The notes beneath the pieces were generated by a model. That model was not told where the DNA came from. It did not search any database and saw nothing but the letters and a program-made list of their open reading frames with translations. The position numbers were made by a program, and so were the translations under genes. A stretch of 64,000 nt of DNA from an uncultured Bacilli bacterium (GTDB lineage Bacteria; Bacillota_I; Bacilli_A; RF39; UBA660), in NCBI GenBank assembly GCA_934100165.1, contig CAKOPN010000001.1, positions 180,389 through 244,388 on the forward strand, in the 5' to 3' direction. Below, one piece after another: positions 2,188 to 43,696 of the stretch (position 1 is the first letter of the stretch; the number at the start of each line of letters is the position of its first letter).

Positions 2188-2229
2188 ATAACCATCCCCC
2201 TCAATTAGTAGACAAATTATATCATATAA

Positions 2230-3765
2230 TTACTTATTTGTCAAGCTTTCGTAAAGTGTGAAGTTGGCATCAGAGTAAAGTGGAATATAATTTTTATCAA
2301 GTTCTAATACTTTATTTAACTTATTTGTATTGTAAATAAGAACATGTGTTATGCCATATTTTGAAAATGTATCTCTATAATTATCAAAAATTTTCATTCC
2401 ATCTATAAATGCTGTACACCCTTTATTAAATTCTTCTGTATAAAGATCTGCTCTTGAATCATAAAAAACTGGAATTTCTTCAAATAACAAATAACTTCCA
2501 AAATTATACTCATTGAAAAGCTTAATATTTTTAACATCAAGATTATTTTTAATATAAGTTGATACTCCTATTGGATATTTTTTTGGATTAACATAAGGGA
2601 CTCTATAACTAGACTTAACATTTAAAACAGAAAATAGAATCATAAACAATGACAAAGTAACATAAACATACCCAGTATCGATAACATCTTCTAATTTTAT
2701 AGTAGTTAATCTCTTATCTATAAAGCTTTTCAAAATTCTAGCTATACTATAAAAGCCTAAAACTAAAAATAAAGCAAAACTTCTATTTGATAAAAGGCTA
2801 AGTAAGAAAAGACCACCTAGAAAGAAAAAGTCTTTAAGTTTAATTTTCATACTTCCTTGAAATAGTAAAAATACAAGAGCAAAAAATATTATAAATACAG
2901 CTGGACTATTACTTATTGTAATTGGTAAGTGTTCACTGATATATGACATAGTAACACCTTGCCTTGTATTATAAAAGTAAGTAAAAGGAACTAAAAAGTT
3001 AGGAGTTAAAAAGCCAGTTGCTAATACAAGCAAAACAGAAATCAAAAGTTTTTTGGTATTTTTTGCTTCTTCTATAATAATGACCCCATCACTTATATTC
3101 CTTTTTTCTTTATATATATTTATCTGCTTCTTGAATTTATTTTTTATATAGTAAACTAAATCTTGTACTAAGTATGGGAGAAATAATACAAATATAAATG
3201 GCCATACTGCTAAATGTACATTAGCAATTAGTAAAGAAAAAGCAAAAATATAAATAAAATATTTTTTCTTTCCTGTTTCTCTAAGCATTTCTATTGAATA
3301 AAGAATCAAAAGAAGAAAAATATAACTGACAAGCTGAGCCCTTGCTGTAATAAAGTTTCTAAAGCACATTCCTAATATTATTGTCATAAAGTAAGAAAGT
3401 CCTCTATCTTTAACTATTTTATTTGTAGTCACATAAAGAGTTACAAACAAAGCAAATGCTAAGACTATACTAGAAATATATACCCCATGAAAACCTGCAA
3501 AATGATAAATAAAATAAATTGCTAAATCATATAGCCAGTGTGGATATGTATAAGCAAGATTTGGAATAAAAGAAAAATGTTCTTTCATATCTATTCCATT
3601 ATTAAATATCGTCTGTCCAACTTTTATTGTATAAAATGTGTCATTTTGTAATTCTCTCGTAGTAAGAATTATTGCAAGAGAAAGGAATGTAATAATCATT
3701 ACACTCCAAAATATTATTTGTTTTTTGTTTTTATTTTTCATATTATCACCAATAAAATTATACAT
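2230..3765 (-). CDS. Polytopic membrane protein, possibly a GT-C-fold glycosyltransferase or polymerase-like protein
   Basis: More than 10 predicted transmembrane segments followed by a roughly 120-aa soluble C-terminal domain. No firm family assignment. Confidence 0.4.
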   Translation of the reverse strand: MYNFIGDNMKNKNKKQIIFWSVMIITFLSLAIILTTRELQNDTFYTIKVGQTIFNNGIDMKEHFSFIPNLAYTYPHWLYDLAIYFIYHFAGFHGVYISSIVLAFALFVTLYVTTNKIVKDRGLSYFMTIILGMCFRNFITARAQLVSYIFLLLILYSIEMLRETGKKKYFIYIFAFSLLIANVHLAVWPFIFVLFLPYLVQDLVYYIKNKFKKQINIYKEKRNISDGVIIIEEAKNTKKLLISVLLVLATGFLTPNFLVPFTYFYNTRQGVTMSYISEHLPITISNSPAVFIIFFALVFLLFQGSMKIKLKDFFFLGGLFLLSLLSNRSFALFLVLGFYSIARILKSFIDKRLTTIKLEDVIDTGYVYVTLSLFMILFSVLNVKSSYRVPYVNPKKYPIGVSTYIKNNLDVKNIKLFNEYNFGSYLLFEEIPVFYDSRADLYTEEFNKGCTAFIDGMKIFDNYRDTFSKYGITHVLIYNTNKLNKVLELDKNYIPLYSDANFTLYESLTNK

Positions 3766-3802: not shown

Positions 3803-5308
3803 CTATGATTTTTTTACTAGCGCTAATTTTTTACCTTCATCTTTTGTTTTATTGTCAAACTTTTCTAAAACAGGAGCATAATCTTCTCTTGAACTTAAAA
3901 TAGTTAATGCTCTACTTTTAATGGGTTCTAACTCTTTTGGATCTTTTTGAAACATCCTTGCAACCTCTTCATGACTGCGTTCAACCCCTCCAAAAATACC
4001 TGTTCTATATGCTAAATATTTAAACGTATCAAAACCACATGTACTATATAAAGATAAATACATTCCTTTATTTTCTTTATCTGCAAAAAGTGTGGCAATA
4101 TAGGCCTTTCTAACCTTTTTTAAAGCTTTTGCTTCTATCTGTCTAACTCTTTCGCGTGTACAACCAAGTTGTCTTCCGATTTCTTCTAGTGTTCTTATTC
4201 CCTTACCATCAAGGCCTAATCTTTCTGTAAGAATTAGATGTTGTCTACTGTCAAGAGTTTTTTTATCGTTTAACACCCCTATTAAAAAGTCTTTTTGCAT
4301 TCCACTTATAACACTATCATCTACATTATCATCGCAAACTAGTAAATCTTCAAGTGTCATAACATCATCTTCATCTATCTTTTTATTTATGCTAACAACA
4401 GGCATTGTAGTTTCACGATAAATTAAATAGTCATTTCTACTAATATCTAATTTTTCTAATATTTCACTTTCAGTAGGTCTTCTACCAAGTTCTAATTCAA
4501 GGCTACTTATCCCTCTAGCAATTCTGCCATTTTTAAGAACTCTATGTACAGGAACTCTAACACTTCTACCAGTATCTGCTATACCTCTTGACACTGCTTG
4601 TCTTATCCACCATGTAGCATATGTAGAAAATGAAGTATCACGAGAAAGATCAAATGTTTCAATAGAATGAAGTAAACCATTACTACCAAACTGAATTAAA
4701 TCATCATAGTCAACAGTCGAAGAAAGGAAACTAAAATACATATTAGCAGCTCTATAAACAAGTGGCATATTTACTTCTAAAAGCTTAGAGATAGTATCAC
4801 TATCACCAGATTCAATTCTACGCATAAGAGCAAGATTAGCTTCACCATACTTTGAAAAATCTATGTTGGAATAATCACCATAATCAGTGTTTTTAATTTT
4901 TTCAATGCAACCATAGAAAGGAACTAAAGAAGGATAATTTACTCTTTCTTCCTCATTTAAACTTAATAATAGTTTTTTAACTATTGGAAATCTTCCCATA
5001 TATGATTTCATCTTCTCATCTGATAATGGACCAACTATAGAAAAATAAGAATTCAAGATTCTAGCTCTTTTTTCGTTACTCATAGAAGAATTAGAAAAGA
5101 GAACTTTACACTCACGTGAGAAATATAAATACTCATTTTTTGAACATTCACTTTCTATTTGGCTTTTAATAATTGATTTTACTTTTGCTATAACAAGTTT
5201 TGGATCTTTTTCTTTTAACATAACTTTTTCTACGGTAGTTCTTGCATTGCCAATGCCATAACAATTACACATATCAATAAGTTTTTCTCTTAATTTCTCA
5301 TTACTCAT
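3803..5308 (-). CDS. Sigma-70 family factor, SigA-like regions 2 to 4 with long N- and C-terminal extensions
   Basis: Region 2 reads DYDDLIQFGSNGLL...[29 protein letters not shown]. Region 4.2 reads [27 protein letters not shown]. The roughly 200-aa N-terminal domain is unrelated to region 1.1. The C-terminal extension carries a second region-4-like motif YLAYRTGIFGG..SHEEVARMF. Confidence 0.7.
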   Translation of the reverse strand: MSNEKLREKLIDMCNCYGIGNARTTVEKVMLKEKDPKLVIAKVKSIIKSQIESECSKNEYLYFSRECKVLFSNSSMSNEKRARILNSYFSIVGPLSDEKMKSYMGRFPIVKKLLLSLNEEERVNYPSLVPFYGCIEKIKNTDYGDYSNIDFSKYGEANLALMRRIESGDSDTISKLLEVNMPLVYRAANMYFSFLSSTVDYDDLIQFGSNGLLHSIETFDLSRDTSFSTYATWWIRQAVSRGIADTGRSVRVPVHRVLKNGRIARGISSLELELGRRPTESEILEKLDISRNDYLIYRETTMPVVSINKKIDEDDVMTLEDLLVCDDNVDDSVISGMQKDFLIGVLNDKKTLDSRQHLILTERLGLDGKGIRTLEEIGRQLGCTRERVRQIEAKALKKVRKAYIATLFADKENKGMYLSLYSTCGFDTFKYLAYRTGIFGGVERSHEEVARMFQKDPKELEPIKSRALTILSSREDYAPVLEKFDNKTKDEGKKLALVKKS

Positions 5309-5323
5309 TTTTTCACTTCTTTC

Positions 5324-6934
5324 TTACACTACTTTTCTAAAGCAAGATGCTGGTAGTTTTACTACTTTTAACTTTGTTTTCTTATCTTTATTTCCTGCTT
5401 CATTTCTATGTTTATTCTCCCACTCAGAAGAATCATAAATAAATAAAAGCGGATCATATAATTTATCATTTTTAAGTTTTTTTAAGACTTTTTGTTCCAA
5501 TTTCTTAGCGCCTCTAATATTTTTTAAAGCTTCTTCTTGAGATAGTCTTCTCTTATTAAATAACCCTGTTCTGCAAGCCAAATAATCAAATTGCGAATCT
5601 TCTGATGAATGCAAAAATGAAATATATGCTCTTCGTATATCTGGCCTTAACTCACTATCCTTTAAATTTAATTCTATTAAAACTGTTTTAATCTTTTGAA
5701 TAGCTTTACTTTGTATTTGACGAATACGTTCATGGGAACATGAAAATGATTTTGCTACTTCACTTAATGTAGCAGGTCTTCCGGCAGTAAGCCCTAATCT
5801 TTCTTTTAATATAAATCTTTCATTTTCATTAAGCATCAAAGAAGAATCTATCATATTCGTAATATATTCGCTTTCCATTTTTGAAAATACTTCTTCATCT
5901 ACTAATTTATTATCTATTAAACTAAAATCTGCAAGGGTATTAGTTTGTCTTTCTCCATTAACATTTTTATCAACACTAGTTATACCAAGCATAATCTCAC
6001 AGTAGATTAAATAATCTTTTCTACTCATTTTTAAAAATTTTAGTATTTCTTCCTCAGATGGAAAATGTCCGAGTTCTTTTTCAAGAGCTTCTATTTCTCT
6101 TTTTGTTTTTTTAGCAGCTTCTATTCTATGTACTGGCACTCTAACATTCCTTCCAGTATCATCAATACCTCTTTCAATAGATTGTTTTATCCATAATGTT
6201 GCATACGTAGAGAAAGACTTACCTTTACTTAAATCAAAACATTCTATTGCACGAAGAAGTCCTTCATTTCCTAATTGGATTAAATCATCAAAATCTAAAG
6301 ATGAAGAATTCTTTACATTATAATGAGAATGTGCAGCTCTATTAACTAAACCTTTGTTGAAAAATAATAATTTTTCTATTGCTTGACTATTACCAGATTC
6401 CATCATGTGCATAAGTTGGTCGTTTATTTTAGTGATATTTTCTGTCACATCAATATTATTTATTTCATCTTCATTATTTGGGGTATAACTGAGAAAAGAA
6501 ACAAGTGCAGGATACTTTTCAAAAGAGTTAGAATCACTAGAACCATATTGTTTACTAACAAAATCTTTAACTCTAGGAAATCTTCCTTGAATTGATAAAT
6601 AATCTTCACGAGAAAGTGGCCCAACCGTTTCAAAAAAATCATTTATTATTTTTAGTTTCTTAGCATCATCATAATATGGATTAGTAAAAAGATTCCTATA
6701 AACTCTAGAAAAATACAAGTTTTTATTAGATGAAAATTCTTTCCTCATCTCGGTTTTTAAAAGAGATTTAGCCTTCCTTAATGCATTTTCATAATATTCT
6801 TTAGAAGTACTACATTTAGCACTATTTGCATACGAAATAGAATCCGTAACAATTTTTTTGGAAGCTAAAATACCATAACTTTCACAAAGAAGTACTAACC
6901 TTTTCTTTATCTCCTCATTTGTCACTTTGATCAC
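5324..6934 (-). CDS. Sigma-70 family factor, paralog of 3803..5308 with similar extensions
   Basis: Region 2 reads DFDDLIQLGNEGLL...FSTYATLWIKQSIERGIDDTGRNVRVPVH. Region 4.2 reads TLSEVAKSFSCSHERIRQIQSKAIQKIK. The start is ambiguous between the GTG at 6934 and a GTG at about 6925 that has a GGGGTGA ribosome-binding site. Confidence 0.7.
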   Translation of the reverse strand: MIKVTNEEIKKRLVLLCESYGILASKKIVTDSISYANSAKCSTSKEYYENALRKAKSLLKTEMRKEFSSNKNLYFSRVYRNLFTNPYYDDAKKLKIINDFFETVGPLSREDYLSIQGRFPRVKDFVSKQYGSSDSNSFEKYPALVSFLSYTPNNEDEINNIDVTENITKINDQLMHMMESGNSQAIEKLLFFNKGLVNRAAHSHYNVKNSSSLDFDDLIQLGNEGLLRAIECFDLSKGKSFSTYATLWIKQSIERGIDDTGRNVRVPVHRIEAAKKTKREIEALEKELGHFPSEEEILKFLKMSRKDYLIYCEIMLGITSVDKNVNGERQTNTLADFSLIDNKLVDEEVFSKMESEYITNMIDSSLMLNENERFILKERLGLTAGRPATLSEVAKSFSCSHERIRQIQSKAIQKIKTVLIELNLKDSELRPDIRRAYISFLHSSEDSQFDYLACRTGLFNKRRLSQEEALKNIRGAKKLEQKVLKKLKNDKLYDPLLFIYDSSEWENKHRNEAGNKDKKTKLKVVKLPASCFRKVV

Positions 6935-19836: not shown

Positions 19837-19869
19837 AAAAAAAATTCCTCCTCAAATCACTATTTAAGG

Positions 19870-20040
19870 ACGAATTTTTCCGCGGTACCACCTTATTTTG
19901 CAACAAAAAGTTACACAACTTAATTATCATTTAACGCAATGAACACGTAATTCTCTATTTACTTAAGAATTATACTCCCCCGCTACCTTCATATGTACAA
20001 AGCATTAACTTTCACCATTTGTTAACTCTCTTAAGAATTG
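19870..20040 (-). promoter_or_regulatory. Candidate T-box leader upstream of the HD-valS operon
   Basis: Minus-strand AAGGTGGTACCGCGG matches the T-box consensus AANNNGGGTGGNACCGCG. An AGAGAG box is upstream. A TTGATT-N18-TATTAT promoter-like element lies near 20070..20110. Confidence 0.45.
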
Positions 20041-20131
20041 TACAAATTACTCCTCGGCTTCAACGTATTTACTTAAAAAGTATTATAATATTATTCTAGT
20101 TATTTGTAAATCAAAATATTTTTATCTTTAC

Positions 20132-21784
20132 CTATTTTAAAACATAAGGATCACTGCTAATTCCAGTTCCACCTGCTATAACAGCACTATTTGTGATACT
20201 AATAACTGGTCTAACATAAGAAGTATCTTTTATATTTTTGCTTAAAATATTACCAGATGTATCAACAACATTTAATGTTTCAGTACCACTATTAGAAAGT
20301 GTCCAGTATTCTTGGTTACTACCAATCGTATACATATCACCTATCTTAGGTATACCAACTTTAATATTTAAAATATTGCTGTTGTCACAAGTAAAACTAT
20401 ATTTTGTTGTAGGAGTAACTAAGCTTACACAAAAGTCACCTACTACAAGTTTTTTACTATCTTCCTCAGGAAGATTTCCATACCACTCTGTATTTAAAAG
20501 TTTACCTATTGTAGTGCCTTGGTTATAAGTCGGTGTAATTATTTCATCAAACACTGTATTTAAGCTTGGAATAACATTTACTTTAACCAATCTAGTATAA
20601 TTAGTAGTAGTATTTATTATTCTATAAAGTTCTCCAGCAAAATTAACATATTCACCAGCATACCTTGTATTAAGAAGTGTACCAGTAAGAGCAGTACTTT
20701 CTCCTACTAATCTATAAGGATTATCTTTTGTACCTTCACCACCATAAGCATATGTAATGTTTGGATTAAGCACTATTGAAGGTCTTATTCCAACATATGT
20801 ATTTACACTAGCACTTACAGGGTTATTATTAGATATATACCAGTTATCGCTTTCACTAGATTTTGAAATTAACCACCAAGAATAATCACTATTTAAGAAT
20901 TCTTTTGATTTATCATATTCATAGTAATTAAGTAAACCAACTCTAGACTGCGTAACATTAGAAGTACCTGGCATACCAGAATTTGTAACTACACTATAGT
21001 TCCAATTAGCATTAAGTAAATAATAATCCGGATTTCTAAGTGTCTTTAAAAATGTATTATTAAGCCAAATATCAACATTACTATTATTAAAGTTTGATGA
21101 AGAATCATTAAATGGTAAAACAGTTACTACTTCATCTGATATTAGTTTAACTGTTTTATTATTATCGTTATAACTAACAATTCTCCACATTTTACCTGAA
21201 TAATAAACATAATTGTCAGGAGCATTTCCAGTTATATATCTATCAGCATTGCTATCAGCACCTGTTGCACTCAAACCAGAAATTTTGTCATATAAAACAT
21301 TTTCACGTTCTGCAACATATTTATCACAAGATTCTGTATTTTCTTTTAATTTTGAATATTCAACTTTATTTCTCTTCGCACACACAAGACTAGATTCAAC
21401 AGTTTTCTTACCATTAACATTTCTAATACGAACATCAATATAATTTTTGCTACTATCAATATCTTCAAAATTAGTAAGGTCATAAGAAGAGGCACCATTA
21501 CAAGTTACACCATCTTCATCAAACTCTTTTAAGTATTTATTCTTTACTAAAAATTCTACACTTGTGTCAATACACCCACTAGCATTTACTCCTCCTAAAT
21601 CATCTTTTCTACTATCAGCGTATAAAAGTGCAGCTTTTTCAATTAAATTATAATATTCATCATACTTTTTATTCTTGTTTTCCTTCATTAGTCTTGTTGT
21701 GGCAGGAAGTACAATAAGAAGTAAAAGTCCCATTATAACAATAACTGCAATAAGCTCAATTAAAGTAAATCCTTTCTTTTTCAT
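20132..21784 (-). CDS. Large type IV pilin-like protein with a class III (prepilin) signal
   Basis: MKKKGFTLIELIAVIVIMG prepilin leader and hydrophobic helix. About 550 aa. An extended -10 promoter is upstream. Confidence 0.6.
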   Translation of the reverse strand: MKKKGFTLIELIAVIVIMGLLLLIVLPATTRLMKENKNKKYDEYYNLIEKAALLYADSRKDDLGGVNASGCIDTSVEFLVKNKYLKEFDEDGVTCNGASSYDLTNFEDIDSSKNYIDVRIRNVNGKKTVESSLVCAKRNKVEYSKLKENTESCDKYVAERENVLYDKISGLSATGADSNADRYITGNAPDNYVYYSGKMWRIVSYNDNNKTVKLISDEVVTVLPFNDSSSNFNNSNVDIWLNNTFLKTLRNPDYYLLNANWNYSVVTNSGMPGTSNVTQSRVGLLNYYEYDKSKEFLNSDYSWWLISKSSESDNWYISNNNPVSASVNTYVGIRPSIVLNPNITYAYGGEGTKDNPYRLVGESTALTGTLLNTRYAGEYVNFAGELYRIINTTTNYTRLVKVNVIPSLNTVFDEIITPTYNQGTTIGKLLNTEWYGNLPEEDSKKLVVGDFCVSLVTPTTKYSFTCDNSNILNIKVGIPKIGDMYTIGSNQEYWTLSNSGTETLNVVDTSGNILSKNIKDTSYVRPVISITNSAVIAGGTGISSDPYVLK

Positions 21785-21807
21785 AGACACCATCCTATTC
21801 TACAAAA

Positions 21808-31488: not shown

Positions 31489-33249
31489 TTAATATCTTTG
31501 ATTCATATCTACAAATTCACTAGGTTCATAAACTGTACCAGTAAACCATACTTCTCCACTATCTTTATCTCTAATAATAAACATATATGGCTTATCAAAA
31601 GTTAAATCTATCTTTTCAACAGGAACTTCAAATAAATGATCATAGAAACCTCCATTTATATTTCCAGCTCCTCCTAACACAGTAGCGGCAGAAGCTTTTA
31701 TTCCTTCATTAGAAAATTCAATATTTGCTTTATGTCTAACTAATAAAATAAATTCACCTCTGGAAGAAACTATGCTAGATAAATCAGCTTTCGTCTGATC
31801 AAAAATATCTTCTACACCAAGTTTCTTTAAATCTTCTTTTAAATTAAGATTATATTCGAACTTAAATACAGGAATAGATGCATTTATTTCTATTACTTTG
31901 CCTTGATCAAAGCTTTCTGGTTTTATAGTTTTAAGTCCAGAAATAACATTGTTTAAAGTTTTTGCATCAACATTATTTATATACTCTTTTAGACTAACAT
32001 TTGTAGGCATTATACCAACATATTGTAGTGTTGTACCATCATAAGTCTTTAAATCTTTTGCAAAAGCTTTTACAGAGTCATCTGTATATACTAAGAAATC
32101 CGTTGATGATGAATACTTCCCGTAATTAGCATCAAGTTCGTCAATAAAATTATTAACAAACTTAGGAATATCAAGCTCATTCTCAGATTTTGCATATTCA
32201 TAGTTACGAGGATCTTCATTTAACCAGTTAGTATATTCTGTTTCTATCATTTTATAGATGTTATCTCTTCCTAGTTCTTTTACAATGTTATAGTTATTTA
32301 TTGTAGCACTTACATCTAAAACACCGGCATCATACTTATTATTAAATTTAACTTTTTCCATTGGTGTACCATCAGTTACAGAAACATAATTGTTATATTT
32401 TTCATGAGCAAAATAAAATTCCCAATAATAATCTCCTTTTGTACCATCTGGTTGAATTCTTTTAACCCATTCCATATCAATACCTAATGCATTAACAAGT
32501 GCAAAATCAAGATCTTTCAAATCAGCATCACTTACAACATTATCAATTAAGTTAAGAGTTTTATCCTTAACCCAAGCGTTAATTGTTTTAGCGTTTTCAA
32601 AAGAATCATATACTACATCAGCATCGTATTTCCCTTTTAACTTGTTAACATAACCAGCTTGTACCTCATCTTTGAAATCATTTCTTATAAACATAGCATT
32701 AGCAAGTGATATATTCTTACTGTTTACATATTTTTTTGATATATAATCGCCAACGATTGCATTGATTTGACCATATGAATCACCAGAAGCACCTTCTTTA
32801 AGCATTTGTAATGCATATTTAATTGAAAGTGGGCTGTATACTTTATTTATCTCTTCATTTTCAAGTTTTAAAAATTGAAGATCGAAATTTTCAAGCGAAT
32901 TACCACTCATTTTATACGGTGAAGTATATTTTTCATTTTCACTAACAATAGGATCTTTTTTTGGCTCCTTTTTATTAAGATTATTTAGGAAAAACACTTC
33001 TCCCACTATGCATGCAGCTGATATTATGACAAAGCAAATCCAAAATGTTATTTTCTTTTTGTTTCCCTCTTTTTTTGTCATATCTTTTTTCTCATTATCA
33101 TCTTGTTCTTTTACTATAACTTCTTCTTTATTATTATTTTGCACATCTAAAACCGTTTTTTCTGCATTATTTTCTTGTTCTTTTGCTATAGCATTTTCTG
33201 CATTATTTTCTTGTTCTTTCACAGTATCTTTTTTCTCACTATCTTCCAT
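31489..33249 (-). CDS. Serpin-family protease inhibitor with an N-terminal repeat region and a transmembrane anchor
   Basis: Serpin motifs YSPLSIKYALQMLKEGASGDS, a reactive-centre-loop-like GIKASAATVLGGAG, and the C-terminal signature FDKPYMFIIRD...WFTGTV. The N-terminus carries KEQENNAE repeats and a transmembrane helix. Confidence 0.7.
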   Translation of the reverse strand: MEDSEKKDTVKEQENNAENAIAKEQENNAEKTVLDVQNNNKEEVIVKEQDDNEKKDMTKKEGNKKKITFWICFVIISAACIVGEVFFLNNLNKKEPKKDPIVSENEKYTSPYKMSGNSLENFDLQFLKLENEEINKVYSPLSIKYALQMLKEGASGDSYGQINAIVGDYISKKYVNSKNISLANAMFIRNDFKDEVQAGYVNKLKGKYDADVVYDSFENAKTINAWVKDKTLNLIDNVVSDADLKDLDFALVNALGIDMEWVKRIQPDGTKGDYYWEFYFAHEKYNNYVSVTDGTPMEKVKFNNKYDAGVLDVSATINNYNIVKELGRDNIYKMIETEYTNWLNEDPRNYEYAKSENELDIPKFVNNFIDELDANYGKYSSSTDFLVYTDDSVKAFAKDLKTYDGTTLQYVGIMPTNVSLKEYINNVDAKTLNNVISGLKTIKPESFDQGKVIEINASIPVFKFEYNLNLKEDLKKLGVEDIFDQTKADLSSIVSSRGEFILLVRHKANIEFSNEGIKASAATVLGGAGNINGGFYDHLFEVPVEKIDLTFDKPYMFIIRDKDSGEVWFTGTVYEPSEFVDMNQRY

Positions 33250-37787: not shown

Positions 37788-38444
37788 TTATAATACGTAA
37801 AGTAATATTGAGAAGAAATGTAAAATTGATCCTGCAAGTACAAAGATATGGAATATTGAATGCATGTATTTAATTTTTTTACCAATTCCATAAAATATTG
37901 CACCCACAGTATAAATGATTCCTCCTGCTATTAAAAGCCATATGCCAGGCATAGCTATTGCTTCTGTAAGTGGTTTAAATGCAAATATTATAACCCATCC
38001 CATTGCAAGATAACATATCATCGAAAATACCTTAAACTTATTTAAATCAACTGAATTAAGTACTACTCCTAAAATAGCAGCAGCCCAAACAATTCCAAAT
38101 AGTGTCCACCCTAGGGCTCCACCTAAAGCAACTAACGTATACGGCGTATATGTTCCTGCAATAAGAAGAAAAATACTGCAGTGATCAATTATTCTAAATA
38201 CTCTTTTTGCATTATTAACTTTAAGTGCATGATACATAGTAGACATCATATAAAGGATAATTAAAGTACTACCATAAATACAGCTACTAACAACTGCTAT
38301 TGCACTATTATGCATAGCACTAAAAATAACACAAAGAACAAGTCCAGCAATAGATAAAAGAGCACCTATTCCATGACTAATAGCACTAACAAGTTCTTCT
38401 GCAAGAGTATACTTTGGTATTTCTATTTTTTCTTTTAATGTCAT
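37788..38444 (-). CDS. Hemolysin III family (PAQR) membrane protein
   Basis: Seven transmembrane segments with conserved His residues. Confidence 0.7.
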   Translation of the reverse strand: MTLKEKIEIPKYTLAEELVSAISHGIGALLSIAGLVLCVIFSAMHNSAIAVVSSCIYGSTLIILYMMSTMYHALKVNNAKRVFRIIDHCSIFLLIAGTYTPYTLVALGGALGWTLFGIVWAAAILGVVLNSVDLNKFKVFSMICYLAMGWVIIFAFKPLTEAIAMPGIWLLIAGGIIYTVGAIFYGIGKKIKYMHSIFHIFVLAGSILHFFSILLYVL

Positions 38445-38520: not shown

Positions 38521-39999
38521 TTATTTCAATTTCATTGTTGGGAAAAGTATTACTTCTCTTATTGTTTCAGAATTTGTAAGTAACATTACAAGTCTATCAA
38601 TTCCCATACCCATACCACCAGTTGGAGGCATTCCATATTCAAGAGCTTCTACATAGTCAATGTCCATTTCGTTAGCTTCTTCATTACCAAGTTCTCTTTC
38701 CTTTAATTGGTTTTCGAATCTTTCGTACTGATCAATTGGATCATTTAACTCTGTATATGCATTAGCATATTCTCCTCCTGCTATAAATAATTCGAATCTG
38801 TAAGTAAATCTTTCATCTTCAGCCTCTTTTTTAGCAAGTGGCGTAATCTCTATTGGATATTCGTAAACAAATGTTGGTTCGATAAGTGTTTCTTCAACAT
38901 ATTTTTCAAAGAATGCATTAACGATGTGTCCATATCCAAAGTGTGCTTCTACTTCAACACCATGTTCTTCTGCTATTTTCTTAGCTTCTTCAAATGTTGT
39001 AACTTTCTTAAAGTCAATACCTGTTTCCTTCTTTATAGCATCGCACATTGATATTTTCTTAAACCCTGGTTTAAGTGATATTTTTTGTCCTCTAAACTCT
39101 ATATCATATGTACCATTTAATTCCATACAAGCATTGCAGATAATTCCTTCTGTTAATTCCATCATCCCTTGTAAATCACTATATGCTTTATATACTTCTA
39201 TTGTAGTGAATTCTGGATTATGGTTTTTATCCATTCCTTCATTTCTGAATAATCTGCCTATTTCATAAACGGCATCCATTCCTCCTACGATAAGTCTTTT
39301 AAGTGATAACTCAGTAGCTATTCTTAAATACATATCTATATCAAGTGTATTATGATGTGTAACAAATGGTCTTGCACTAGCTCCTCCCAAAATAGTTCCT
39401 AAAACAGGAGTTTCTACTTCAGTATATCCAAGATTATCAAGATATCTTTGAATTGATCTAATAATCTTTGGTCTTGCGAATGCTACACGACGTGCATCTT
39501 CATTAACTATTAAATCAACATAACGTCTTCTAAATCTTTCTTCTACATCTACTAGTCCATGGAATTTATCTGGTAATGGTCTTAGTGCTTTTACTAAATG
39601 AGTAAACTCTGTTGCTCTAATACTAAGTTCTCCCATGTGAGTTCTCATAACTGTACCTTTAATACCAACGATATCACCAAGGTCTGATTTATCAAAAACT
39701 GAATAAGCATCTTCTCCAACATTATCAAGTTTTACATATATTTGAATTTGACCATACTTATCTTGTAAGTTCATGAAACCTGCTTTACCTTTACCACGTT
39801 TAGTCATTATTCTTCCAGCAATACTAACTTCTTTTTTAATTTCATCTAACTCTTCTGTAGTTTTATCTTTAAATTCTTCTTTTAAATCCCTACTGTTAGC
39901 AGTAATTTCATATTTAGAACCAAAAGGATCAATACCTTTTTCTTTTAGAAAATCAAGTTTTTCTCTCCTTATTGTTTCTTGTTCTGTAAACTCTCTCAT
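38521..39999 (-). CDS. lysS: Lysyl-tRNA synthetase (class II)
   Basis: OB-fold N-terminus, class II motifs, and the C-terminal [12 protein letters not shown]. Confidence 0.95.
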
Positions 40000-40072: not shown

Positions 40073-40095
40073 AAAAAGGTAGCTTAGCTACCTTA
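40073..40095 (-). terminator. Intrinsic terminator after the pilin gene 40117..40785
   Basis: Perfect palindrome aaggtagct-t/a-agctacctt followed by a U-run. Confidence 0.6.
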
Positions 40096-40116: not shown

Positions 40117-40785
40117 TTATTTACAATCAGAAACGCTTAAAACTTTAATTGCAGAAATAACTTTTCCACTTTCATTAGCAGTTACTGTTTCAACAAGACC
40201 TTTTACACTTTCAGGTTTATTCTTTGGTTCTATCCATTGTTCTCCACTAGATCCTTCTGCTGGAGCAGCAACTAAATAGTCCTTAGAAGTAGCACCATCA
40301 TATAAATCTTTTAATGCTGTATATTGAGTAAGTTCATTGTTTCCAGAAACAACTAAGTCTCCAAGATTATCTGCTAAATCTTTTTGGCTTACAAAGTTAA
40401 TTCCTTGGTTAGAACCATCTTTTGCTACGAAATAATAGTTATAATTTTTACCGTTGTAAGTAACACCTACATAAGCATAATCCCATGTATCACTAAATGG
40501 TGATCTTCCGCCTTTTTCAACAGCTACACAAGATTTTCCATCTTCATGTCCAACTGGTATTAGATATAAAGTATTCACATCGAATAATTGTACTTTAGTA
40601 GCTTGGTTAACCATGTTTCTAGTATCATCGATATATCCAGAAGCAGATTGAGCAAACGCTGATTTTCTTGAGTTAGAAATATATTGTGTAACACTTGGAA
40701 TAGCAATAATCATTAAAACACCTAAGATAATGATAACTGCAAGTAATTCAATTAAAGTAAAACCTTTTTTATTTGTTTTTTTCAT
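40117..40785 (-). CDS. Type IV pilin-like protein (class III signal)
   Basis: KKGFTLIELLAVIIILGVLMIIAIPSV prepilin leader. Confidence 0.65.
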   Translation of the reverse strand: MKKTNKKGFTLIELLAVIIILGVLMIIAIPSVTQYISNSRKSAFAQSASGYIDDTRNMVNQATKVQLFDVNTLYLIPVGHEDGKSCVAVEKGGRSPFSDTWDYAYVGVTYNGKNYNYYFVAKDGSNQGINFVSQKDLADNLGDLVVSGNNELTQYTALKDLYDGATSKDYLVAAPAEGSSGEQWIEPKNKPESVKGLVETVTANESGKVISAIKVLSVSDCK

Positions 40786-40937
40786 TATAAATTATTTCCT
40801 CTCTTCCTTTATTTTATAAATAAAGTTTATAATAAGGAAAATAAAAAGTCAATATATTAAGAAATAATTAGACATTTTTTAACATATTTATACAATTATT
40901 TTAAAAAAAATTGATCTATACGATCAATTTATTATTT

Positions 40938-41513
40938 TTAATAAATATTTACTGTTTCTCTGTGAAGTTTAGCCTTTATTTCATCAACATTATTTATCAA
41001 GTTTTTTTCTACTGTACTTCCCTTCACAACAAGATCAAATCTATCAGAAGTATTTAAATCACCAAGCTTAGATAAGTTAATTCCTCTGTTATATGCTACC
41101 GAATCATCCGTAGTATTTTCACACTTCATATCTGAACATGACACTAAATGCACATAATAAACTCTTTCGTATTCACCAGTGGTAGGAATCTGTTCAAGAG
41201 TAATTGCTACAAATGAAAGTTCTTTAGAATAATAAGTATCATATGGAGACACTTCAAGATCTACACTGTCTAAATTTGCAAGTTTAATGATTGTAACACT
41301 ATAAGCATCTGGATATTCTATAGAAGTATCGCTTCTTATTTTATATTCAGCGGCACTAACCATATTTTGTGCATCTTTCAAAAACGTTTCCTTTTTGTTT
41401 TTATCTAAAGTAGAAATAATATTAGGAACCGCTATTGTCATTATTACTCCCAATATAACAATAACCGCTAAAAGTTCGACCAAAGTGAATCCTTTTTTGT
41501 TTTTTCTCATCAT
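40938..41513 (-). CDS. Type IV pilin-like protein (class III signal)
   Basis: MMRKNKKGFTLVELLAVIVILGV prepilin leader. The start is moved to an internal ATG next to a ribosome-binding site. Confidence 0.6.
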   Translation of the reverse strand: MMRKNKKGFTLVELLAVIVILGVIMTIAVPNIISTLDKNKKETFLKDAQNMVSAAEYKIRSDTSIEYPDAYSVTIIKLANLDSVDLEVSPYDTYYSKELSFVAITLEQIPTTGEYERVYYVHLVSCSDMKCENTTDDSVAYNRGINLSKLGDLNTSDRFDLVVKGSTVEKNLINNVDEIKAKLHRETVNIY

Positions 41514-41595
41514 ATCACCATACCTTAAAATAATTATAATATTATTAAGATAAGTTTTCAAGGAAAAAAAAGATGCTTCATTTATAAGCATCGAT

Positions 41596-42027
41596 TTATT
41601 TATCTTGTAACATATTTATAAGATTAACTTTAAACATATCTTTTTCAGGATGAGTTTTAGAAATCATAACACCTTTATAAGTAGAAAGCTCTGCACGATG
41701 TCCCTCTTCAAGTATTTCTTCTGGTGTAATGTTAGTAAGAAGAACTATTTTTTTATCTTCGTAAACTGTATAATGTAATCTTATCTCACCATGTACTTGT
41801 GCAAAAAGTTTTGCAGTTGGTAATTTTAATTCATAAGATTTTGTATTTTCTTTTTTAGAAACCGCTACTAATTCACCTAAGAAATTACCATTTCTAATTT
41901 CAGGGTAATATTCAAATGTTAACTTCTTATAAGCAAACATATTATATTTTCTTACAGTTCTTTCTTTCTTTCTAAAATCATTCTCATTTTGATATTCAAA
42001 TATATAACTTTGTTTCATAGTATTCAA
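41596..42027 (-). CDS. Hypothetical protein, first gene of the pilin transcription unit
   Basis: 143-aa ORF downstream of a consensus TTGACA-17-TATAAT promoter. It resembles Gp49/RelE-like folds weakly at best. Confidence 0.4.
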   Translation of the reverse strand: MNTMKQSYIFEYQNENDFRKKERTVRKYNMFAYKKLTFEYYPEIRNGNFLGELVAVSKKENTKSYELKLPTAKLFAQVHGEIRLHYTVYEDKKIVLLTNITPEEILEEGHRAELSTYKGVMISKTHPEKDMFKVNLINMLQDK

Positions 42028-42089
42028 CCCCCACTACATTATTTTAATATGAGACTCTCTTAAGACCCCTATTCTCAAGATGTGTTAGT

Positions 42090-42118
42090 ATTATAACACG
42101 AAATTAACTAATTGTCAA
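42090..42118 (-). promoter_or_regulatory. Consensus sigma-A promoter driving 41596..42027 and the downstream pilin genes
   Basis: Minus-strand TTGACA-N17-TATAAT, an exact consensus. Confidence 0.6.
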
Positions 42119-42134
42119 ATTTTTATTTATTTTT

Positions 42135-42395
42135 TTACTTTACTTGGACAATTAGTTTAATAGCAGTCCTTTCTTCATTGTCAATTTTTATGTCTGCAAA
42201 TGCTGGAACACAGACAAGATTTTTTCCAGAAGGTGCTAAAAAGCCTCTACAAATAATTATTGCTTTAACGGACTGATTAAGTGCTCCTGCTCCAATCGCT
42301 TGTATTTCCACTGTATCTCTTTCTTTCAAAATATTGGCAAGTGCTCCCGCAACAGAATTAGGATTAGATTTACTAGATACTTTAAGTATTTCCAT
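42135..42395 (-). CDS. spoVS: Stage V sporulation protein S
   Basis: MEILKVSSKSNPNSVAGALANIL...IQAIGAGALNQSVKA matches SpoVS almost residue for residue. Confidence 0.85.
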   Translation of the reverse strand: MEILKVSSKSNPNSVAGALANILKERDTVEIQAIGAGALNQSVKAIIICRGFLAPSGKNLVCVPAFADIKIDNEERTAIKLIVQVK

Positions 42396-42496: not shown

Positions 42497-43696
42497 TTAA
42501 AATTCTAGTTTTTCAATTTCATCATTATTTACCATAGGTGTAACAGAAACTGGTGTTGGTGCTACTGCTGGAGTAACTGGCGCAACAGGTGTTACTGGTG
42601 TAACAGGTACTGTTGGAGTTTGAATGCTGGAAGTAACTGTTGCTGTAAGTGTATCAACAGGTGCTGGTGCAACTGTTGGTGCAACTGGAATCGTTGGTTC
42701 AACAACAGGTATAGTTGGTACTGTAGGTACAACTGGTGTAACTGGTATTGTTGGAACAACTGGTGTTACAACTGGTTCAACTTTTACTTCTTCTTTAACT
42801 TGAGGTATTGGTCCTACTCCTGGAGCATTTATGCTAGGTTCCATTATAGGAGCACCTGCATAAGCTTCACGAACTGTTGCAGTTGGAATTGGGGCAGTAT
42901 TCTCAAGTGGATTAGCACCACCATATATTTCTCTTGGTTTTTCAATTAAATCTTCTTTGTTTATAAGTTCTGGATTAGCACCACCATACACAACTGGTGT
43001 TGGCTTAACTTCTTCTTTTACTTCTGGTACAACTGGTGTAACAGTTGCAACTTCAGGAGTTACTGGAAGTGGTGTTGGTGTAATTACTGGTGCTACTGGT
43101 TCAACTGTTGGAATAACTGGTGTTGAAACTTCATTTTCAATAGCAGGTGCACTAACACTTACTTCTACCGGTTTAACTTCATCTAATAATGGTTGAACTA
43201 CTGGTTGTGAAACTTCTGGTATTGGAGCCGGAATAACTGGTGTTGGTTCGATTGCTGGTTCAACAATTGGAGTTGTATCTATAACTGGTGTATTTAAAAT
43301 ACTTGGTGTCTCTTGAACTGGTTCTGGTGTTGGAATAGCATTTAAAATGCTTGGTGTTTCAACTGCAGGAGCAGCAGATTCAGAGAAGTTAATTGGCCCA
43401 ACTGGTGGAACATCATTAACAACTGGCTGTGGATTAACTTCTGGTGTAACTGGTTGTGGATTAGCATTAATGAATCCATTCATATCACCATTTACAGCCA
43501 TATTTGTATCAATATTAGGTACTGGGTCTTGTGCAACAGGGGCAGCATCTACAGATAAATCCTTATCTTTACCTTTACCCATACATAATAAAACAATTCC
43601 AATAATTAGTAATAAAATTCCAACAATAATAAGTATCCCTTCTGTTGAAGTAATAAATTCAACAATATCAAAACTTAATAATTCAAAAACATTCAT
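42497..43696 (-). CDS. Membrane-anchored Pro/Thr/Val-rich low-complexity repeat protein
   Basis: N-terminal transmembrane helix followed by PVTP/VVPT repeats and duplicated YGGANP motifs. Confidence 0.5.
   Translation of the reverse strand: MNVFELLSFDIVEFITSTEGILIIVGILLLIIGIVLLCMGKGKDKDLSVDAAPVAQDPVPNIDTNMAVNGDMNGFINANPQPVTPEVNPQPVVNDVPPVGPINFSESAAPAVETPSILNAIPTPEPVQETPSILNTPVIDTTPIVEPAIEPTPVIPAPIPEVSQPVVQPLLDEVKPVEVSVSAPAIENEVSTPVIPTVEPVAPVITPTPLPVTPEVATVTPVVPEVKEEVKPTPVVYGGANPELINKEDLIEKPREIYGGANPLENTAPIPTATVREAYAGAPIMEPSINAPGVGPIPQVKEEVKVEPVVTPVVPTIPVTPVVPTVPTIPVVEPTIPVAPTVAPAPVDTLTATVTSSIQTPTVPVTPVTPVAPVTPAVAPTPVSVTPMVNNDEIEKLEF

Follow-up and report, generated by a model that had tools for sequence, protein, structure and literature searches.

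Three probably independent transcription units between spoVS and lysS of an uncultured gut Bacilli bacterium: two type IV pilin genes and a conserved gene with a predicted RelE-type fold

The region between spoVS and lysS in a 64-kb stretch of genomic DNA from an uncultured Bacilli bacterium (hereafter 'the window', that is, the whole stretch analyzed; 28.9% G+C, every gene on the minus strand) contains a gene coding for a protein of 140 amino acids (aa) and two genes coding for type IV pilins, referred to as pilin 1 and pilin 2. It is quite probable that these three genes constitute independent transcription units arranged in tandem on the same strand, that the pilins are served by an assembly machinery encoded elsewhere in the genome, and that the 140-aa gene is unrelated to them. 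A preliminary description, made from the sequence, had instead considered the three genes as a single unit in which the 140-aa gene leads the pilins under one consensus promoter. This single-operon reading fails because each of the genes is followed by its own hairpin and U-run and because pilin 1 possesses, in addition, its own promoter.

Transcription units between spoVS and lysS

The exact TTGACA-N17-TATAAT promoter that had been described is indeed present at 42118..42090 (coordinates of features in this region are given in the direction of the minus strand), and carries a TG extension of its -10 element (TTGACA-17-TGtTATAAT). Since two perfect TTGACA-17-TATAAT sites are observed in the window versus 0.03 expected by chance, it does not represent a chance match. 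The second perfect site (2216-2244, minus strand) is located 28 nucleotides (nt) upstream of a gene coding for a 135-aa protein with internal repeats (1780-2187). A 71-nt 5' leader (42089..42019) connects the first promoter with the coding sequence (42018..41596), whose end coincides with that of the 143-aa reading frame given previously for positions 41596 to 42027. The start does not: all homologues begin with MKQ or MK and a Shine-Dalgarno (SD) sequence, GGGGG, sits 8 nt upstream of the ATG at 42018, so that this ATG, and not the TTG at 42027, is the true start and the protein comprises 140 aa. The stop codon is followed by an intrinsic terminator with a 7-bp stem and U8 (41592..41572; -7.9 kcal/mol, z = -3.3).

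Pilin 1 (41513..40938; 191 aa) is preceded by a promoter of its own, TTGAAA-17-TATAAT (41561..41533), which matches the consensus at 11 of 12 positions, and is followed by a terminator with a 9-bp A/T-rich stem and U8 (40930..40908; -9.0 kcal/mol, z = -5.5) that none of 200 shuffled sequences equals in folding. Ahead of pilin 2 (40785..40117; 222 aa) there is a weak -35/-10 match (40852..40824; 9 of 12 positions), and behind it a perfect 8-bp stem with a U-run (40094..40076; -9.9 kcal/mol). This last hairpin is the perfect palindromic terminator that had been taken to close the unit; it does exist as described, but with two further terminators and the pilin 1 promoter located before it, a single unit can no longer be maintained. 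The flanking genes are, as reported, spoVS upstream (42395..42135; Pfam SpoVS, E = 4e-38) and lysS downstream (39999..38521); no T-box was detected ahead of the latter.

The 140-aa gene is a monocistronic cassette, consisting of a near-consensus sigma-A promoter with extended -10 element, a structured 71-nt leader, the coding sequence and an intrinsic terminator. This architecture is conserved among orthologues: the promoter, in the form TTGAC[AT]-17-T[GA]nTATAAT, is found in all 83 distinct orthologous upstream regions, and of 84 distinct orthologous loci, 74 have a hairpin with a T-run immediately behind the stop codon, the stem sequence of which differs between species. A TTGAAA...TATAAT promoter likewise occurs 3' of the terminator of the 140-aa gene in relatives (for example, loci L012-L015 and L017-L019).

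Distribution, synteny and selection

The family of the 140-aa protein comprises 2306 close relatives and, according to a profile search, 3521 members, which form 342 clusters at 50% identity. Members occur in at least 581 species-level genomes, which are without exception metagenome-assembled genomes (MAGs) of uncultured gut bacteria designated 'Bacilli bacterium', CAG:710 or Aphodocola-type, and in the index of the assembly collection 648 blocks contain the exact protein of the window. The host lineage consists of gut Bacilli with small genomes (1.27-1.31 Mb) that contain spore genes. In 87 of 88 loci the gene is present as a single copy (exception, L052), and no homologue was found in 50,697 phage records or in 72,556 plasmid records.

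Comparison of 80 species loci reveals that two to five pilin genes are located downstream of the 140-aa gene in 33 and divergently upstream of it in 3, that about 35 have none, and that 9 are too short to tell. Wherever the region is rearranged (L016, L020, L024, L083), the 140-aa gene keeps spoVS, and the pilins keep nfo; in more distant orthologues, tRNA genes follow the 140-aa gene. That the 140-aa gene and the pilins are adjacent is thus best read as lineage-specific synteny, and not as functional coupling, because the pilins are patchily present, the two blocks have moved independently, and tRNA genes take the place of pilins behind the distant orthologues. Hence the role of a leader gene in a pilin operon, as proposed previously, does not hold for a gene that has a conserved promoter, leader and terminator of its own and is followed by pilins in 33 of about 71 informative species loci. 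Two further observations concern the neighborhood. In relatives (L009-L088), nfo directly follows the pilins, and in the species of the window lysS and a gene of the haemolysin-III family (37788-38444, minus strand) are inserted between pilin 2 and nfo. At one distant locus (L005, 9628-9849), a gene for a 73-aa pilin of the Flp/Tad type (MKRLNRKGQALVEYVVIIG...) is located directly upstream of the homologue of the 140-aa gene, and tRNA genes lie downstream.

The three genes also differ in how they evolve. The ratio of nonsynonymous to synonymous divergence (dN/dS) is 0.04-0.09 for the 140-aa gene, 0.17-0.25 for pilin 1 and 0.3-0.5 for pilin 2. In comparison with the closest species, the 140-aa protein is 94% identical, as opposed to 72% for both pilins and 71% for the nfo product, and the 140-aa gene is more conserved than its neighbors spoVS and nfo. 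Within the species, the 140-aa gene has a synonymous divergence (dS) 3 to 6 times lower than those of spoVS, lysS, nfo and pilin 1, a difference suggestive of codon selection through high expression; the gene would then be abundantly expressed.

The 5' leader of the 140-aa gene

For the leader, RNAfold predicts a 5'-proximal hairpin with AGGGG in its loop (42080..42058 in the window), both here and in most relatives, and an SD-like sequence, GGGGGTTGA, is located at 42032..42024. Copies of GGGGTT are repeated in most leaders of the orthologues (L009-L088), with one or two beyond the hairpin loop, the last of which is the Shine-Dalgarno sequence. Covariation is seen in the stem: full pairing (6/6) of the 5' arm with the 3' arm of the same sequence occurs in 24 of 42 cases, versus 17% in the non-self control; for this test, each sequence was folded individually and self arm pairing was compared with non-self arm pairing. 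Alignment with MAFFT followed by RNAalifold yielded no structure for the hairpin, the 3' arm being misaligned in the alignment, and no Rfam family matches the leader. Outside the leader, neither GGGGTT nor AGGGGT shows enrichment in the window, so that a regulon is not indicated. The hairpin and the upstream SD-like GGGG motifs may stabilize the mRNA or regulate its translation; alternatively, a regulator or the 140-aa protein itself could bind to the motif.

Fold and function of the 140-aa protein

The 140-aa protein has no match in Pfam or NCBIfam (E <= 0.1 for both), nor in PADLOC or PHROGs. An AlphaFold2 model calculated from a diverse alignment reached a pLDDT of 87.9 and a pTM of 0.79; distant representatives had been added for this final model, as an alignment of 33 close homologues (82-90% identity) alone had yielded a pLDDT of 49 and was unusable. 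The model shows the order beta1-alpha1-alpha2-beta-beta-(short helix)-beta-beta, after which come a helix, a hairpin and, at the C-terminus, a last helix. Structure comparison ranks the archaeal RelE of Pyrococcus horikoshii first (aRelE, 1wmi_C; score 11.7, rmsd 1.7 Å over 79 residues), ahead of YoeB (9.4 and 8.8), YafQ (8.4), RelE (8.4), HigB (7.8) and ParE (about 7.7), and Foldseek agrees on the RelE-type matches with probabilities of 0.96-0.99. As the two comparisons agree, the modeled core, of a protein predicted to be cytoplasmic, is assigned to the RelE/ParE superfamily, with an extension of about 40 aa at the C-terminus. The suggestion that the protein might belong to a known pilus-assembly or regulatory family is not borne out, the predicted fold being that of RelE/YoeB/ParE toxins instead. 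The viral structure library BFVD contained no meaningful match.

On the sequence level, a search of PDB sequences with the family HMM found no toxin; a marginal match to histone H1 (E = 0.059) was dismissed in favor of the fold result. The only segment that hhalign aligns with E. coli RelE places YELKL...IRLHYTV on YKIKL...YRLVYQV, with an insertion of 8 residues. In the register of this match, which is not significant, RelE K54 corresponds to K65, R61 to R80 and K52 to E63, the catalytic reference sets being K52/K54/R61/R81/Y87 for RelE and E46/R65/H83/Y84 for YoeB. Residues K65, R80, H107, R108 and Y114 show little or no variation in the close clade and vary in distant members; an EGH..EL.TYKG motif is kept in most members, and the last helix of the extension (F129, K130, L133) is the most conserved element family-wide. 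Some lineages have variants of the domain (P0271, P0121, P0136, P0139, P0124), namely a tandem duplication or fusions with an N-terminal membrane anchor and coiled coil, a zinc ribbon or a C-terminal membrane tail; some of these variants may be artefacts of gene calling.

The RelE-superfamily fold is normally that of a mobile and poorly conserved toxin that is paired with an antitoxin. No antitoxin gene is located beside the 140-aa gene at any locus examined: promoter and 71-nt leader lie upstream and the terminator downstream, and the neighbors vary across orthologous loci between spoVS, tRNA genes and small unrelated open reading frames. SpoVS was considered as a hidden antitoxin and rejected, as the promoter of the 140-aa gene separates the two and 39 of 88 loci have no spoVS match near the gene. 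Nor does the gene exhibit the patchy, mobile and multi-copy occurrence of type II toxin-antitoxin (TA) systems. We infer that the 140-aa protein acts as a domesticated RNA- or ribosome-binding protein of RelE fold, and not as a classical addiction toxin.

The most serious competitor is that the protein is an active mRNA interferase of the RelE/YoeB type, held in check by an unconventional inhibitor (the C-terminal extension acting as a fused antitoxin, or an unrecognized partner such as the spoVS product or an RNA) within a stress or phage-defence module. The strength of the fold match, the location of K65 and R80, in the RelE alignment, at the positions of RelE K54 and R61, the EGH..EL.TYKG motif, the conservation of the C-terminal helix, and the occurrence of tandem duplications and membrane-tethered fusions would all be in line with such a toxin. 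We nevertheless consider it unlikely, since the missing antitoxin gene comes together with vertical conservation in single copy at a dN/dS of about 0.05, unlike patchy mobile TA toxins, with the lack of any match in PADLOC or among the plasmid and phage records, with variation of the putative catalytic positions in distant members, and with a constitutive consensus promoter that is hard to square with a free toxin.

A more detailed version of the domesticated RelE-fold reading can be offered tentatively, as a possibility that stays well below even odds. The family may represent a non-toxic core factor of RelE fold throughout this lineage of gut Bacilli with small genomes, abundant and binding RNA or the ribosome, which might serve as a translational regulator or as a hibernation-like A-site binder; the C-terminal helix would replace the antitoxin, and the protein's own mRNA would be controlled via the leader hairpin and GGGGTT.

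The pilin genes and their machinery

The two pilin genes are paralogous type IV pilin genes, each with its own terminator. As had been noted from their KGFTL[IV]ELLAVI segments, both encode class III signals, and in both a basic 8-aa leader ends with Gly and precedes Phe at +1, Glu at +5 and a hydrophobic stretch: the signal of pilin 1 is MMRKNKKG|FTLVELLAVIVILGVIMTIAVP, with FTLVELL after the Gly, and that of pilin 2 is MKKTNKKG|FTLIELLAVIIILGVLMIIAIP, with FTLIELL. Scores for PF07963 (N_methyl) are 37.1 bits for pilin 1 and 32.9 bits for pilin 2 (curated cut-off 21.2), and those for TIGR02532 are 32.5 and 30.4 bits, respectively (curated cut-off 16.3), so that the classification as type IV pilin-like is confirmed by both models. 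Solved pilins, including Streptococcus sanguinis PilE1, match both N-terminal helices (residues 2-60), and the alignment of residue 1 of the solved chains with residue 9 of the query agrees with cleavage after Gly8. For the C-terminal domains, sequence searches of Pfam, NCBIfam and PDB matched no family and no solved structure; pilin 2 contains two Cys residues, one of them penultimate. The proteins would be made as prepilins and cut after Gly8 by a prepilin peptidase encoded elsewhere, and the processed pilins would enter a type IV filament whose assembly ATPase and platform protein are likewise encoded elsewhere.

No gene for PilB/ComGA, PilC/ComGB or an A24 prepilin peptidase is present in the 64-kb window (T2SSE and T2SSF being included in the search), or within 10 kb past either end in the same species, that is, in about 84 kb altogether. 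An ATPase with a GspE-type Walker A motif (GxTGSGK[ST]) was not found in 88 related loci, and the Pfam-annotated neighborhoods of related loci are free of machinery genes as well, the flanks of about 95 loci having been covered altogether. The previously reported absence of adjacent pilB/pilC/pilD and comGA/comGB genes is thereby extended beyond the immediate neighborhood. The stretch inspected represents about 7% of a genome of about 1.27 Mb, so that the pilins can be called 'orphan' at the local scale only. It had been argued that pilin genes normally reside beside their ATPase. This is true for the Firmicutes studied so far, in which the assembly genes of type IV pili are clustered (PMC6916266), but not for type IVa systems in general, in which they are spread around the genome (PMC6916266).

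Scattering of pilins among housekeeping genes seems to be usual in this uncultured lineage, and does not point to a special orphan module, because related MAGs also carry single pilin-like genes amid housekeeping genes. A search with the 48-aa N-terminus of the pilins retrieved short proteins only (35-84 aa), and three of them, located on long contigs, sat among housekeeping genes. Short N_methyl genes (56-74 aa) are found in related MAGs near rpe, adh and spoIIIAH/rpsB (L094, 10001-10225; L095, 10001-10180; L096, 10001-10171); each is followed by a second open reading frame, and these may be split or frameshifted pilin genes. The window itself contains a third pilin-like gene, absent from the preliminary description, which codes for a 553-aa protein (21793..20132, minus strand) that combines a DUF6273 module with the class III signal MKKKGFTLIELIAVIV. 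Spore-coat-like genes lie on one side of it and, on the other, the T-box leader (19863-20072) of an HDIG-valS operon, and no machinery gene is nearby.

Orthologues of the pilins in related species share just 30-75% identity. Since dN/dS stays below 1, the pilins are functional, fast-evolving genes, and not relics. For pilin 2, dS is lower than for lysS and nfo in each of the three same-species strains compared, because of which we would expect pilin 2 to be the more abundant subunit.

It has to be weighed, then, whether the genome is a reduced one devoid of filament machinery, in which the pilin-like genes would be true orphans, either as decaying relics or as genes in which the class III signal serves just for membrane anchoring or surface display. 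The small size of the genomes, the lack of a machinery gene both in about 84 kb of the species and in related loci that add up to about 1.5 Mb, and the single scattered pilin-like genes of the relatives would be expected in this case. Both genes are intact, however, and here retain G-1 and E+5 (in relatives, G-1 is replaced by Ala in some copies; L001); purifying selection acts on both across species, their number varies from 2 to 5 as in an actively used family, and the machinery is missing from just the small part of the genome that was inspected. We thus regard true orphans as improbable, slightly more so than an active toxin, and favor pilins with a machinery encoded elsewhere.

Other genes of the window

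Upstream of spoVS, a gene on the minus strand (42497-43696) codes for a membrane-anchored protein of 399 aa with a high content of Pro, Val and Thr; its length ranges from 388 to 403 aa across strains of the same species. Two tandem paralogous proteins of the sigma-70 family are encoded at 3803-5308 and 5324-6934 (minus strand). They are unusually long (501 and 536 aa), with regions 2-4 located behind an uncharacterized N-terminal part of about 170-200 aa, and the pair is kept in the same species (L097). Finally, a 586-aa protein (31489-33249, minus strand) ends with a serpin domain (E = 1e-43), ahead of which lie a membrane segment and an N-terminus that is charged and rich in repeats; the presence of a serpin is unusual for a bacterial gut genome of 1.3 Mb.

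Discussion

Several points have to be held against the picture of three independent units with separately encoded machinery and an unrelated RelE-fold gene. Intrinsic terminators leak, the strong promoter of the 140-aa gene could give some read-through into the pilin genes, and the boundaries of the units are predicted ones. Pilin 2, with its weak promoter match (9 of 12), may partly depend on read-through from pilin 1, and the prepilin peptidase and assembly ATPase encoded elsewhere in the genome are presumed ones. For the 140-aa protein, the fold assignment relies on a predicted structure, hhalign comparison with E. coli RelE gives a non-significant probability of 0.4%, and the function proposed is inferred only.

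Least likely of all, and in our view very improbable, is that the 140-aa gene and the two pilins form one functional module under the consensus promoter, with the 140-aa protein serving as a pilus-related regulator, chaperone or assembly factor: possible leakage of terminators, the recurrence of the same order with up to five pilins in the 33 species loci, the 3 more loci in which pilins remain next to the gene pair after inversion, and the Flp-type pilin gene directly upstream of one distant orthologue are outweighed by the terminator in 74 of 84 loci, the promoter of pilin 1, the occurrence of the 140-aa gene without a nearby pilin in about half of the species, its segregation with spoVS and that of the pilins with nfo upon rearrangement, very different evolutionary rates, and a fold that is RelE-like and not pilus-related.

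With three independent units as the preferred reading, the part of this work devoted to the pilins is mostly a correction, the two genes being ordinary, rapidly evolving paralogues of type IV pilins. The 140-aa gene, as a possible domesticated toxin fold, is the more interesting by-product, though moderately so. If its proposed role is true, recruitment of a toxin fold into a core function would represent a clear example of exaptation, and the gene would open a way into the biology of an uncultured gut lineage that is very common.

Comparison with known systems

With the type IVa pilins of Firmicutes, such as PilE1 and PilE2 of S. sanguinis and the pilins of Clostridium, the pilins of the window share Gly-1, Phe+1, Glu+5, the hydrophobic N-terminal helix and the presence of multiple paralogues, and S. 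sanguinis PilE1 (8pfb) is among their best PDB sequence matches. Unlike these, they combine unmatched C-terminal domains with a short 8-aa leader, and are encoded singly or in small tandems amid housekeeping genes with the machinery not nearby. Similarity to the ComG pseudopilus operon of Bacilli (comGA-GG) is weaker: the N-terminal 30-50 residues weakly match the models of ComGC (32 bits, cut-off 75), ComGD (21-26, cut-off 70), ComGE (24-27, cut-off 49) and ComGF (16-18, cut-off 80), that is, with 15-33 bits versus cut-offs of 49-80, and the pilins are about twice as long as the ComGC model (84 positions). They are far below the cut-offs of the ComG, GspG and PilA equivalog models and, with no comGA or comGB adjacent, do not belong to a ComG operon.

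Stabilizers at the 5' end of mRNAs from Firmicutes, as in the cryIIIA leader of Bacillus thuringiensis, consist of a 5'-terminal hairpin and an upstream SD-like sequence termed 'STAB-SD'. The leader of the 140-aa gene resembles these in possessing a 5'-proximal hairpin and one or two SD-like G-rich motifs far upstream of the real Shine-Dalgarno sequence, downstream of a consensus promoter. It differs in that the motif is GGGGTT and not GGAGG, with one copy residing in the hairpin loop.

When compared with the RelE/YoeB/ParE superfamily (1wmi; YoeB, 2a6q and 7v6w; E. coli RelE and YafQ), finally, the 140-aa protein is distinguished by a helical insertion of 8 residues and by its conserved C-terminal extension of about 40 aa. 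The family has no significant match to a toxin model and no antitoxin gene, and is absent from the plasmids and phages searched. Its gene, unlike those of the superfamily's toxins, is maintained as a single copy at a dN/dS of about 0.05 in at least 581 species, together with a conserved consensus promoter and a structured leader.

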